From positions 32,001-96,000 of the forward strand of contig CAWHEU010000004.1 in NCBI GenBank assembly GCA_963828465.1: DNA of 64,000 bases. Direction: 5' to 3'. The stretch's first letter is position 1. Every line of letters starts with the position of its first letter. A program made the position numbers and the translations under genes. The notes below the pieces were generated by a model that saw nothing but the letters and a program-made list of their open reading frames with translations, was not told the DNA's origin and ran no database searches. Positions 11,414-40,840 of this stretch are shown here, in pieces. Origin of the DNA: an uncultured Acidobacteriota bacterium. GTDB lineage: Bacteria > Actinomycetota > Acidimicrobiia > Spongiisociales > ZC4RG35.

Positions 11414-12512
11414 TTGCAATATCCACTCTCGGACGAAACGAGCTTCTACCACCATCCCGGTGTCTTCCACCTCGAGAGCGGTGCGAGACCTCGAGGATGT
11501 CCAGGTCGGCTACCGCACCTGGGGTGAGCCCCGTCCCGAGGCCATCCTGATCTGTCACGCCCTCACCGGAAGCGCCGACGCCGACGAATGGTGGGAAGGC
11601 CTGTTCGGCCCGAACCGGTCGTTCGACCCCGAGCAGGACTTCATCATCGCCAGCAACGTCCTCGGCGGCTGTTATGGAACCACCGGGCCCACCTCGTTAC
11701 GACCGGGCACGGAACGCTGGTACGGGCATGAATTCCCCCGGGTCACGATCCGGGACATGGTCGATCTTCAGGCGGGCTTGCTCGACCACCTCGAGGTCGA
11801 GACGCTAGGACTCGTCATCGGAGGGTCGATGGGCGGCATGCAGGCCCTGGAATGGGCGGCGATGTACCCCGACCGAGTGGGAGGTGGGGTTGCCATCGGA
11901 GTCGGTTCCCATCACTCCGCCTGGAGTGTCGCCTTCTCCGAGGCACAGAGGGCCGCCATCTGGGCGGACCCGAAGTTCCTGGACGGCGACTACGAGCCGG
12001 GGCTGGGCCCTGACAACGGTCTTTCAGTGGCCCGGATGATCGCGATGATCTCGTACCGGGGGAAGGCCAACTTCGAGTCCCGCTTCGGGAGAAAGACCCT
12101 GGAAGACGAGTTCGAGATCCAGTCCTACCTCCGCTACCAGGGCCAGAAGCTGGTCGGTCGCTTCGACGCCAACACCTATCTTCGCCTCGTCGACGCCATG
12201 GACAGCCATGACCTGGCGCGGGGCCGCGGCGAGATGGACCAGGTCCTGGCCGGATTGAAGACACCGTTCCTCACCGTCGGCATCTCCAGTGACATCCTCT
12301 ACCCGGCTACCGAGGTGGAAGAGCTCGCCACCGCCTTGCCCAATGCCCGCTATCAGATGTTGCATGCCCCACAGGGCCACGATTCCTTCCTCATCGACAT
12401 GGCCAACCTCGATGGCATCGTGAGCCGCTTCAAACACGACCTGGCCCGTGGGATCACCCCAGCCGACGACTTCGCCACGGGCGCCGGGCGGGGCTCGTCG
12501 TGGGCGTTTTAG
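11414..12512 (+). CDS. metX: Homoserine O-acetyltransferase; apparent 1-bp insertion near 11488
   Basis: Motifs CHALTG, NVLGGCYGTTGP, GGSMGGMQ, RFDANTY, GHDSFL. The N-terminus MQYPLSDETSFYHHPGVFHLESGA (TTG 11414) is in a different frame and joins LEDVQVGYRTWG if one C is removed. Confidence 0.9.
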
Positions 12513-38849: not shown

Positions 38850-39239
38850 TCATCTGGAGGATGCGAGCTGAATGAGGTTGCCGCAAGTGTCATCGAGCAC
38901 GGTCGTGGTGATATCCCCCATCTCCAGTGGTTCCTGGGTGAAACGAACGCCGGCTGCGCTGAGCCGCTCGTATTCGGCACGGGCGTCATCCACGGCGAAA
39001 GACGCGAAGGGAATGCCGTCCTCCACCAGCGCCTTCTTGAAAACCCCGGCCGCAGGATGGTTGTCCGGCTCCAGAACGAGTTCCGGTCCATCGGGATCGG
39101 CTGGTGAGCAGACGGTCAGCCATCTGTACTCCCCAGCAGGGATCTCGGTCTTCTTCTCGAACCCGAGCTTCTCCGTGTAGAAGTCGAGTGCCTTGTCCTG
39201 ATCGTCCACCAGGACCGATGTGACGTTGATTCGGATCAT
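38850..39239 (-). CDS. VOC/glyoxalase family protein
   Basis: Motifs VDDQDKALDFYTEKLGF, RWLTV, DDTCGNLIQL. Confidence 0.9.
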   Translation of the reverse strand: MIRINVTSVLVDDQDKALDFYTEKLGFEKKTEIPAGEYRWLTVCSPADPDGPELVLEPDNHPAAGVFKKALVEDGIPFASFAVDDARAEYERLSAAGVRFTQEPLEMGDITTTVLDDTCGNLIQLASSR

Positions 39240-39520
39240 CCTTCTTCCCTCTCGCTAGGGGGCCAACGCTCGACGATGCTCTGCAACGGCGAGGTGTTGA
39301 CGTGATGGAACTTGTACCGACCCTCACGCTGGGTACTGAGCAGACCGGCCTCTTCCAGAACATCCAGGTGCTGGGAGATGGCTTGCCGGGACGGGCTCAA
39401 ACCGTGTTTCATCGCCAGTCGGGCGCATATCTCGAACAGGGTCTGACCGTCCTTGTCGCTCAACTCGTCGAGGATCGCCCGCCGCGTGGGGTCGGCAAGA
39501 GCCTTGAACATGTCGCTCAT
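39236..39520 (-). CDS. ArsR/SmtB family transcriptional regulator
   Basis: Motifs FKALADPTRRAILD and SRQAISQHLDVLEEAGL. Confidence 0.9.
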   Translation of the reverse strand: MSDMFKALADPTRRAILDELSDKDGQTLFEICARLAMKHGLSPSRQAISQHLDVLEEAGLLSTQREGRYKFHHVNTSPLQSIVERWPPSEREEG

Positions 39521-39534
39521 GGCCCTGTCATCAT

Positions 39535-39554
39535 AGGCAAGTCGTTACTTGCCT
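39535..39554. promoter_or_regulatory. Palindromic operator AGGCAAGT-N4-ACTTGCCT, probable ArsR autoregulatory site
   Basis: Perfect 8-bp inverted repeat 14 nt upstream of the ArsR start codon. Confidence 0.65.
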
Positions 39555-39579
39555 GTCGAACCCGCCTTCGTTTCGTGCA

Positions 39580-39608
39580 TTGACTTGAACCCCGATCCTG
39601 GATACCTT
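39580..39608 (+). promoter_or_regulatory. Housekeeping promoter TTGACT-N17-TACCTT
   Basis: Near-consensus -35/-10 ending 9 nt before the leader-peptide ATG. Confidence 0.6.
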
Positions 39609-39617
39609 TCCTGTCAC

Positions 39618-39683
39618 ATGAGCGCCTGGCTCACGACCGGTATGACGACCACGACCGAAAGGCCGTGCGACTCGTCCGTGTAA
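39618..39683 (+). CDS. Thr-rich attenuator leader peptide MSAWLTTGMTTTTERPCDSSV
   Basis: 21 codons with six Thr codons clustered; followed by alternative hairpins and a U-tailed terminator upstream of homoserine dehydrogenase. Confidence 0.8.
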   Translation: MSAWLTTGMTTTTERPCDSSV

Positions 39684-39709
39684 CCAGCGACACCACCACA
39701 CGAAACACG

Positions 39710-39740
39710 AGATCCGCACCGGCAGGGAGCGGATCTTTTT
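39710..39740 (+). terminator. Attenuator terminator hairpin
   Basis: AGATCCGC-ACC-GGCAG-GGA-GCGGATCT followed by TTTT, located within the 5' leader of hom. Confidence 0.85.
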
Positions 39741-39814
39741 GATTCCCGACCCGGTAGCGGCCATCGGAGAAGCGAAGGTCACATGAGAGAGCAGACAGAA
39801 TCGAGGCGGAGGCC

Positions 39815-40840
39815 ATGACCGTCCGCGTCGGCGTGCTCGGTGCCGGAACCGTCGGTGGCGCCCTGGTCAACCGGCTGTTGACCGACCGTGACGCCATCAG
39901 ACTGAAATCAGGCGTTGATCTAGAGGTCCGGCGTGTCGCGGTGAGGGACCTGGCCAAGGAGCGTCCCTTCGCCATCAAGGCAGACCGGCTGACCGACGAC
40001 GCGGTGTCGGTCGTCACCGACCCTTCGATCGACGTGATCGTCGAGGTGATCGGTGGCCTCGAGCCGGCGGGTGCCCTGGTCCTGGCCGCCTTGCGCTCGG
40101 GAAAGCCCGTGGTCACCGCCAACAAGGAGCTCATCGCCACCAGGGGCCAGGAGATCGTGGAGGCGGCAAAGCGGGCCGGGGTATCCGTCATGTACGAGGC
40201 GGCGGTGGGAGGTGGGATCCCGGTGATCCGCCCCCTTGCCGAGAGCCTCGCCGGCGAGGACATCGACGTGGTGAGCGGCATCGTGAACGGGACCACCAAC
40301 TACATCCTCACCGCGATGGCAAAAGAGGGCCGCAGCTATGACGACGCCCTGGCTGAGGCCCAGCGTCTCGGCTACGCCGAGACCGACCCCGCGGACGATG
40401 TCTCCGGGCGCGATGCTGCCTTCAAGACCTCGATCCTCGCCAGCCTCGCCTTCGGTGAGCGGGTCGCGCCGTGGGAAGTCGAATGTGAAGGGATCGAAGG
40501 CGTGACCGCCGACGACGTGGCCTCCGCCACCGAAAAGGGCGAGGTGATCAAGCTCATCGGCTCGGCGCAGAGGGGAATCGATGGGCGGGTCGAGGCAACG
40601 GTGAAGCCGCTGAGCCTTCCCGACGACCACCCGCTGGCCGGCGTCAACGGGGTGACCAACGCCATCTTCATCGAGGGGCCGTCGGTGGGCCGTCTCCTCT
40701 TCACCGGACCTGGGGCCGGGGGCCAGCCCACGGCTAGCGCGATGCTCGGCGATCTGATCCAGGTGGCCTCACGGGGCCGTGGCCCGAGGACCGGCTCGGC
40801 GCACGATCCCAAGCCGCGACGCCAGGTGCTCCACCGCTAG
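39815..40840 (+). CDS. hom: Homoserine dehydrogenase (short form, no ACT domain)
   Basis: Motifs GAGTVG, VVTANKE, EAAVGGGIP, GIVNGTTNYIL, GYAETDP, GPGAGGQPTASA. Confidence 0.93.
   Translation: MTVRVGVLGAGTVGGALVNRLLTDRDAIRLKSGVDLEVRRVAVRDLAKERPFAIKADRLTDDAVSVVTDPSIDVIVEVIGGLEPAGALVLAALRSGKPVVTANKELIATRGQEIVEAAKRAGVSVMYEAAVGGGIPVIRPLAESLAGEDIDVVSGIVNGTTNYILTAMAKEGRSYDDALAEAQRLGYAETDPADDVSGRDAAFKTSILASLAFGERVAPWEVECEGIEGVTADDVASATEKGEVIKLIGSAQRGIDGRVEATVKPLSLPDDHPLAGVNGVTNAIFIEGPSVGRLLFTGPGAGGQPTASAMLGDLIQVASRGRGPRTGSAHDPKPRRQVLHR

Follow-up and report, generated by a model that had tools for sequence, protein, structure and literature searches.

A putative threonine attenuator with a near-leaderless mini-ORF ahead of an ACT-less homoserine dehydrogenase gene in Acidimicrobiia

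Background

How is homoserine dehydrogenase (Hom) held in check in a bacterium whose only copy of the enzyme has no ACT domain? This question is raised by the hom gene in a 64,000-nucleotide stretch of the genome of an uncultured Acidimicrobiia bacterium (the window; GenBank assembly GCA_963828465.1, contig CAWHEU010000004.1, positions 32,001 to 96,000 of the forward strand). An earlier note, made from the letters of this stretch alone, proposed that a ribosome-mediated attenuator carrying Thr codons, with one Met codon among them, lies ahead of the gene. We compared the hom leader with those of related genomes, and the proposal gained from the comparison: the element occurs in 26 of 26 leaders, varies as a coding sequence does, shows covariation in its helices and carries different codons where the same scaffold precedes another gene, metY. 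On these comparative grounds, the hom leader is very probably a ribosome-mediated (leader-peptide) transcription attenuator set by the supply of charged tRNA-Thr.

Attenuation by leader peptides belongs to textbook knowledge; most examples come from Proteobacteria, besides a few operons in cultured Actinobacteria. The enterobacterial threonine leader thrL uses Thr and Ile control codons and lies upstream of thrA-thrB-thrC. Among Actinobacteria, the ilvBNC operon of Corynebacterium is reportedly governed by a leader-peptide attenuator.

Results and discussion

Anatomy of the hom leader

Direct reading of the sequence recovered each of the parts named in the earlier note, from the promoter and the mini-open reading frame (mini-ORF) to the alternative pairings and the terminator (Table 1). 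The two promoter hexamers are 17 bases apart, and the downstream one ends 9 bases 5' of the ATG (39618) of the leader reading frame, uORF1, which has no Shine-Dalgarno sequence. The frame closes with TAA at 39681-39683. Six of its 20 internal codons specify threonine, four of them in succession, and it contains a single Cys codon and no Ile codon. Region 2 of the transcript can pair with region 3 through GTGCG (39665-39669) with CGCAC (39715-39719), CTCGT (39671-39675) with ACGAG (39707-39711) and CGTGT (39677-39681) with ACACG (39698-39702). In the alternative 3:4 state, the arm GAGATCCGC (39709-39717) pairs with GCGGATCTT (39729-39737) to form an intrinsic terminator whose T run ends at 39740.

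Table 1 Features of the hom leader, the gene that it precedes and the related metY leaders. Positions are those of the window unless a locus number (L) is given; loci outside the window are cited by such numbers throughout.
Feature	Position	Strand	Basis or remark
-35 hexamer TTGACT	39580-39585	+	sequence reading; TTGACTT invariant in 26/26 aligned leaders
-10 hexamer TACCTT, within invariant GGATACCTT	39603-39608	+	invariant in 26/26
uORF1, leader peptide MSAWLTTGMTTTTERPCDSSV, near-leaderless, 21 codons	39618-39683	+	sequence reading; ATG, frame and stop kept in 26/26
Control codons T-T-G-M-T-T-T-T (codons 6-13)	39633-39656	+	codons 10-13 double as region 1
1:2 hairpin CACGACC-GAAA-GGCCGTG, one A.C mismatch	39650-39667	+	sequence reading; fold
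Region 2, antiterminator 5' strand	39661-39681	+	overlaps uORF1 codons 15-21, extends to stop codon
Region 3, antiterminator 3' strand (ACACG, ACGAG, CGCAcCGGC)	39698-39723	+	includes terminator 5' arm
Intrinsic terminator (3:4), 9-pair stem, 11-base loop, T5 tail	39709-39740	+	sequence reading; fold; 49-leader alignment
uORF2 (MREQTESRRRP), 11 codons	39783-39818	+	TGA overlaps hom ATG as ATGA
hom, homoserine dehydrogenase, 341 amino acids, without ACT domain	39815-40840	+	Pfam; NCBIfam NF004976; sole copy in genome
metY leaders (22 Acidimicrobiia genomes)	L084:1501-1626, L085-L091, L093, L110-L112, L114-L123	- (L084)	terminator on hom-leader scaffold

Conservation and coding signature of uORF1

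Loci encoding 78 relatives of Hom were collected, 27 of which encode proteins 77-98% identical to that of the window. Two of these (L021 and L022) are cut at a contig end, and all 25 close relatives with upstream DNA have the leader element. All 26 leaders retain the promoter, ATG, reading frame, stop, Thr run, T tail and both alternative helices; the alignment across relatives named beforehand as a check thus upheld both the Thr run and the uORF1 frame. Variable positions are found in the loops of the hairpin and the terminator and in the spacer that separates region 2 from region 3. uORF1 is 21 codons long in 25 sequences; in L018 it is 23 codons long, and the two-codon insertion responsible led to the exclusion of this sequence from the codon-column statistics. 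TAA is the stop in 20 sequences and TAG in five; TGA occupies this position in one metY leader.

Variation outside the helices is of the coding type. Thr7 is conserved in 25 of 25 sequences using three synonymous codons, and Gly8 in 23 of 25 using all four. Over codons 2-9, which lie outside the helices, the column entropy rises from 0.46 at the first codon position to 0.73 at the second and 1.03 at the third. Third-position entropy is 0.0 in codons 10-13 and 0.03 in codons 15-21. These near-invariant third positions fit a second role of the two codon blocks as regions 1 and 2, and point to a constraint at the RNA level.

Control codons follow the downstream gene

A covariance model built from the hom leaders alone (R1) found the hom-leader scaffold before metY, which encodes O-acetylhomoserine sulfhydrylase, in other genera. 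A second model (R2), built from hom and metY leaders together, gave matches at E <=0.01 in 33 of the 151 genomes of the order. Strong matches (>=60 bits) were found in 26 of the 151: five of the hom type and 22 of the metY type, one genome having both. The weaker matches comprise Cys-rich leaders, two Tyr-rich leaders and false hits.

Codon content tracks the downstream gene without exception across 49 leaders. Thr codons number 5-9 and internal Met codons 0-2 in the 27 hom leaders, as against 0-3 Thr, 2-5 internal Met and 1-4 Cys codons in the 22 metY leaders (examples of the metY peptides are MNVAFTREMMCMAMTQPCRPHA and MKVVPIARMICMACPKPCDVDA). The comparison is the equivalent of a codon-swap experiment, and it is the strongest argument for sensing by a ribosome. 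The identity of metY was checked with TIGR01326 in two of the 22 cases (scores of 698 and 682 bits; cut-off 495) and read from an N-terminal motif in the other 20. The metY leaders are candidate methionine/cysteine attenuators, and no description of Met-codon leader attenuators was found in the openly searchable literature. All leader classes have a TTGAC-type -35 hexamer that is separated by about 17 bases from a TAnnnT -10 hexamer; the latter ends 8-10 bases before the ATG in the metY, Cys and Trp leaders as in those of hom.

Several model matches were rejected. The sole class-wide match outside the order was a false positive. The match at L092 was an Asn/Asp/His repeat within a coding region followed by a terminator, upstream of a gene that we take to be radA-like. 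Matches L131, L132 and L133 lie inside coding regions, and L127 was likewise discarded as false.

Two alternative helices share one base

Within the 26 close leaders pairing amounts to 99.4% in the terminator state and 99.3% in the antiterminator state. Over the 49 leaders it reaches 98.0% in the terminator, 99.2% in the antiterminator core (GCCGUGCG with CGCAcCGGC) and 82.2% in the 1:2 hairpin; terminator and hairpin each have three pairs in which both sides have changed, and the T5 tail is kept in all 49. The most informative position is alignment column 111 (C39715 in the window). With its antiterminator partner, column 61 (G39669), it gives G-C in 41 leaders, A-U in eight and no unpaired case. 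With its terminator partner, column 135 (G39731), it gives C-G in 41, U-A in four and U.G in four. The observed covariation score was reached by none of 500 shuffles for either pair of columns. One base therefore covaries with two alternative partners, in agreement with the mutually exclusive 2:3 and 3:4 helices that had been proposed.

Predicted folding under ribosome masks was examined in transcripts cut just 5' of region 4, using the 27 hom leaders and eight usable metY leaders; the L088 row was dropped as its anchor fell on another CGCACC. With a mask for a stalled ribosome, the 2:3 core formed in 26 of the 27 hom leaders (only partly in L013) and in all eight metY leaders. With the ribosome placed at the stop codon it formed in none of the 35.

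Proposed mechanism

From this arrangement we infer the following course of events. Transcription would start at the housekeeping-type promoter, and uORF1 would be translated from an mRNA that is leaderless or has a leader of two or three bases. When Thr-tRNA is plentiful, the ribosome would reach the stop codon at the 3' end of region 2 and cover that region; region 3 would then pair with region 4, and the U-tailed terminator would halt RNA polymerase at a distance of 75 bases upstream of hom. If Thr-tRNA is in short supply, the ribosome would stall on codons 9-13 (M-T-T-T-T), covering region 1 and freeing region 2. Before region 4 has been transcribed, free region 2 would pair with region 3, mainly through GCCG-UGCG with CGCA-c-CGGC and in addition through CUCGU/ACGAG and CGUGU/ACACG, and the polymerase would read through. 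hom would then be translated, probably coupled to uORF2.

Points that weigh against the attenuator

Several observations speak against this mechanism or limit it. Some concern the comparative signal. The ACG and ACC Thr codons of the run are nucleotide-invariant, and RNA pairing alone could explain that. The stems are almost invariant among the 26 close leaders, where a single compensatory pair is found, and the informative covariation comes from the metY branch. All eight A-U variants are metY leaders, and the three that came from the first model search share one family, which means that few independent events are represented; the covariation may go back to perhaps a few evolutionary changes.

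Others concern the folding. At equilibrium the full-length window leader retains the terminator under every ribosome mask, and the switch must therefore be kinetic, decided during transcription as in the classical systems. Fold energies are -17.2 kcal/mol for the terminator, -21.3 for the 2:3 helix, and only -6.9 (core) to -9.0 (extended) for the far weaker 1:2 hairpin. When transcripts cut before region 4 were folded with no ribosome, 2:3 formed in 17 of the 27 hom leaders, that of the window included, and 1:2 formed in ten of the 27 and in seven of the eight metY leaders. The predicted folds thus indicate that the terminated state probably needs a ribosome covering region 2, and that untranslated hom transcripts may read through, in which they would differ from the trp leader of Escherichia coli. 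The 1:2 hairpin of the earlier note is accordingly present and conserved, but it is weak and probably not the main anti-antiterminator; a transient or pausing element is more likely. A 5' extension of this hairpin, pairing the start-codon region with region 2 in the minimum-free-energy fold of the window, was set aside as fortuitous because the consensus fold lacks it.

The remaining points concern the window taken by itself. The whole leader folds with a z score of -1.85, and eight of 200 shuffles fold equally well. Measured against the E. coli consensus, the -10 hexamer is weak. A simple consensus scan listed neither the leader promoter nor the terminator, because TACCTT matches three of the six -10 positions and the terminator loop has 11 bases against a maximum of eight; these thresholds explain the miss, and we do not hold it against the element. 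Since the sequence of one genome is only suggestive, the case for the attenuator rests on conservation.

Loss of the ACT domain and a second mini-ORF

Pfam finds NAD_binding_3 and Homoserine_dh as the only domains of the window Hom, and NF004976 matches it with 428.5 bits over model positions 4-325 of 430, which bears out the earlier description of the enzyme as ACT-less. A convergent GH1 glycosidase gene starts at 40837 and therefore leaves no space for an ACT domain behind hom. The genome, 92% complete, contains one match to PF00742 and thus a single hom gene. The leader-bearing Hom proteins have 338-341 amino acids, and the ACT domain is absent from 27 of 27. For comparison we used 50 relatives whose genes have no leader (L029-L079 without L067), 45 of which are complete at 423-436 amino acids; two others run off their contigs, one is a 770-amino-acid open frame, and two (L079 and L072) are apparently short. 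The ACT domain was identified by Pfam in five of five sampled relatives without the leader (427-433 amino acids). No match to R2 at E <=1 occurs in any of the 51 loci of such relatives. In the two short cases (L079:1498-2764 and L072:955-2236) hom is frameshifted just 5' of the ACT domain, and the ACT part lies in another frame; the frameshifts are possible assembly errors in these long-read genomes.

The C-terminal tails of the window Hom and of the Hom encoded at L083, which follows a distant hom leader, are alike, and this similarity suggests a single truncation event. The gain of the leader is thus cleanly correlated with the loss of ACT, but the two are tied together by what is probably about one evolutionary event. 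The idea that attenuation has replaced allosteric feedback accordingly stands as a correlation. An ACT-less Hom would be expected to be insensitive to threonine.

A second mini-ORF, uORF2, lies between the terminator and hom. It was found in 26 of 26 sequences, each time with its TGA overlapping the hom start, and its length is 11 codons in 20, 12 in four, 14 in one and 32 in one. In most of the 26 it is preceded by purine-rich bases resembling a Shine-Dalgarno sequence. The window has a GGAGG only two bases from the hom ATG, and the same stretch is not Shine-Dalgarno-like in the relatives. Ordinary Shine-Dalgarno sequences take the place of this arrangement before the hom gene of L083 and before the metY genes. 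From this arrangement uORF2 is probably a translational coupling device for hom.

Alternative explanations

A first alternative would extend the attenuator rather than replace it. The earlier note had suggested that the internal Met codon (codon 9 in the window) allows methionine to be read as well, so that hom would be derepressed when either amino acid runs short. We consider such dual sensing a serious possibility, but one that is on the whole somewhat improbable. Each of the 26 close leaders retains an internal Met codon, the position of which shifts among codons 6, 8, 9 and 12 (forms T6/M9, M6/T9, M6/M9, M8 and M6+M12), a ribosome with Met9 in its A site would by its geometry cover region 1 and free region 2, and Hom feeds both pathways. 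Against this, internal Met codons are absent from the distant hom leader at L083 (MNHLAATTTTTTAPEPCG). In the alignment codon 9 falls on the first Met of the MMCM run in metY leaders and may be an inherited relic, and two hom leaders, L023 (MTTTTA) and L024 (TLTTMA), have an intermediate look. ACG and ATG are one transition apart, a single codon is a weak sensor, and the shifts in Met position represent few independent events. Inheritance from a Met leader accounts for the codon equally well.

A broader reading joins these observations. One ancestral leaderless scaffold (GCCGUGCG...CGCAcCGGC...terminator) would have spread within an order of Acidimicrobiia, its region 1 being re-aimed by a few substitutions (ATG to ACG or TGC to ACC, for example) to give switches for Thr (hom), Met and Cys (metY) and Cys (the TusA/DsrE genes described below); the hom switch would have taken over feedback when ACT was lost, and the Met codon that it kept would serve dual Thr/Met sensing. 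We put this history forward tentatively and regard it, together with the example substitutions, as rather unlikely to hold in all its parts. If true, it would amount to a natural codon-swap experiment and to the first methionine-sensing leader peptide.

Stalling on uORF1 might instead control mainly the access of ribosomes to the start of uORF2 or hom, or might report any slowing of translation as a general stress sensor. The unusual, probably coupled uORF2 at hom would suit such translational attenuation, and the leaderless actinobacterial case that has been studied by experiment, the polycysteine small ORFs of mycobacteria, acts on translation, according to the available text of Canestrari et al. 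(10.1101/834739). We nevertheless think it a poor prospect for this locus: the GC-rich stem and T5 tail are present in all 49 leaders with compensatory changes, the terminator lies 42 bases upstream of uORF2 and is unpaired with its Shine-Dalgarno region in the predicted folds, and the codon runs are specific to the downstream gene.

The leader could also be a metabolite- or protein-binding RNA of the riboswitch kind, with the ORF incidental. The high conservation of regions 1-3, third codon positions included, is what such an RNA would show, and yet we judge this very unlikely. The region has no Rfam match; the ATG, frame and stop keep a fixed place, where three different stop codons are used at one position; variation outside the helices is synonymous; and the fixed distance from promoter to ATG is common to all classes while the codon runs switch with the gene. 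The one Rfam match at E <=10 in 39200-40200, to a Xanthomonas small RNA, lies inside hom on the opposite strand and was dismissed as a chance match.

That uORF1 encodes a functional small peptide, such as the precursor of a Thr/Cys-rich modified peptide, with the terminator merely ending its transcript, is scarcely credible: the conserved C-terminus RPCDS(S/T)V that might recommend it is exactly region 2 and is conserved in its third codon positions too, none of the neighbouring genes (ArsR-type, glyoxalase and GH1) is a modification gene, and the homologous metY leaders encode different peptides.

Comparison with known systems

The hom leader shares with enterobacterial thrL (RF00506) a run of Thr codons, a U-tailed terminator and the alternative pairings 1:2, 2:3 and 3:4, ahead of a gene with homoserine dehydrogenase activity, as well as the proposed logic by which a ribosome stalled at Thr codons favours the antiterminator. 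It differs in having no Ile codons, in a predicted (nearly) leaderless mRNA without a Shine-Dalgarno sequence, in its weak 1:2 hairpin and in the stop codon inside region 2. Its target is a monocistronic ACT-less hom rather than thrABC, in another phylum, and the RF00506 covariance model gave no match in 39200-40200 at E <=10. Relative to the ACT-regulated enzymes of the NF004976 type (about 430 amino acids), the window Hom has no C-terminal ACT domain.

The available text of Seliverstov et al. 2005 (PMC1262725) describes actinobacterial attenuators for trp, ilvB, leu and cys, of the same classical leader-peptide type as the hom leader, and states that conserved regulatory structures in the RNA were not seen before actinobacterial threonine or methionine operons; the Acidimicrobiia fall outside that survey. 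Threonine and homoserine are not mentioned in the available portion of Naville and Gautheret 2010 (PMC2965389). Our own search of the literature, which covered papers other than subscription-only ones, found no Thr or hom attenuator in Actinobacteria and nothing that combines Acidimicrobiia with an attenuator, in agreement with the earlier note, which knew of none described in this group.

A related design is that of the mycobacterial 'Cys ribulon', in which, as far as the accessible part of Canestrari et al. (10.1101/834739) goes, the leaderless polycysteine small ORFs unmask a ribosome-binding site and no terminator is involved. If the hom mRNA starts at or next to uORF1 as predicted, the two would have in common a sensory mini-ORF without a 5' leader and stalling as the signal; a design common to several operons is found in both, and the Cys leaders reported below, before TusA/DsrE genes and before a gene resembling cysteine synthase, resemble those of mycobacteria. 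In contrast to the ribulon, the hom leader relies on competition between terminator and antiterminator and carries a Thr tract (Met/Cys in the metY leaders) instead of a Cys tract.

What is new within the classical mechanism is the lineage, the putatively leaderless mini-ORF, hom alone as the target, the loss of ACT, the probably coupled uORF2 and a scaffold shared with Met/Cys and Cys leaders. The hom leader would extend threonine attenuation to the Actinomycetota, at a branch-point enzyme and with a leaderless mini-ORF. RNA-level control gained as an allosteric domain was lost would be a concrete case of one feedback layer replacing another. A common scaffold bearing Thr, Met/Cys or Cys codons suggests how point mutation may re-specify attenuators, and it directs attention to leader peptides that sense methionine. 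Being short (about 125 nucleotides), the scaffold could be carried over into reporter constructs.

Other leaders of the same design

The whole 3.07 Mb genome was scanned for the design, defined as a promoter, a start codon no more than 11 bases further on, an ORF between 9 and 40 codons long and a stable hairpin followed by a T run. Three sites were found genome-wide, each with a codon run that fits the downstream gene: trpE is preceded by WWWAW, hom by the Thr leader and the TusA/DsrE genes by a leader with six Cys codons. The near-leaderless Trp leader (MSRKNLSHADGTWWWAWRAPEVASVG; L135:65-240) is followed by a terminator and a trpE with Anth_synt_I_N and Chorismate_bind domains. The six-Cys leader (MTCPTSPTRCCACSCAAVPCG; L081:1516-1649) has the scaffold GCCGTGC...CGCACCGGC and a terminator before TusA-like and DsrE-like genes, and is conserved in two further genomes of the genus (L128 and L129). 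The Trp and six-Cys leaders both lie on contigs other than that of hom.

A leader with five consecutive Cys codons (MKQFTSSAAACCCCCRAIQPGGATLSC; L126:1516-1654) and a terminator precede a PALP-family gene resembling cysteine synthase. Tyr/Phe-rich mini-ORFs followed by terminators (MQVSYYAYFIYRL... at L125:1383-1517 and ...VAYAYYRPG... at L124:1501-1619, minus strand) precede an aromatic amino acid hydroxylase gene, identified for L125 by the Pfam domain Biopterin_H.

Other pathway genes, neighbours and RNA-derived contigs

The only full metY of the window's own genome is preceded by an S-adenosylmethionine (SAM) riboswitch (RF00162, 75.9 bits; L094:2833-2915, minus strand) rather than by a leader peptide, and a same-genus genome (L093) has a metY paralogue under a leader. 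The thrB gene lies on another contig of the genome; upstream of thrB and metX we saw no convincing leader mini-ORF and no T-run terminator. For thrC no match exceeded the family cut-off in this 92% complete genome (best 60 bits against 167), and the gene is either missing from the assembly or divergent. A metX-like gene in the window (11487-12431) scores 388.7 bits with TIGR01392, below the cut-off of 500, and lies inside a 601-amino-acid open frame.

Twelve RNA runs, all in the form of contigs, were found as sources, the best containing 0.25 of the sampled words, and four were compared with the window. Two short RNA-derived contigs of run X4 cover 39502-39699 and 39717-39840, each with seven differences from the window. 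One of them begins upstream of the proposed promoter; contigs of this kind cannot show starts, ends, strand or levels.

Upstream of the leader, divergent ArsR-type (39236-39520) and glyoxalase-family (38850-39239) genes occupy the minus strand, with a promoter-like site at 39559-39530 on the same strand. The ArsR-type neighbour was rejected as a conserved regulator of hom, being present in only seven of 25 relatives. Seven of the compared loci (L003-L006, L015, L023 and L028) come from records titled 'uncultured Acidobacteriota bacterium'; their hom loci are 77-96% identical to those of Acidimicrobiia, and the titles look mislabelled.

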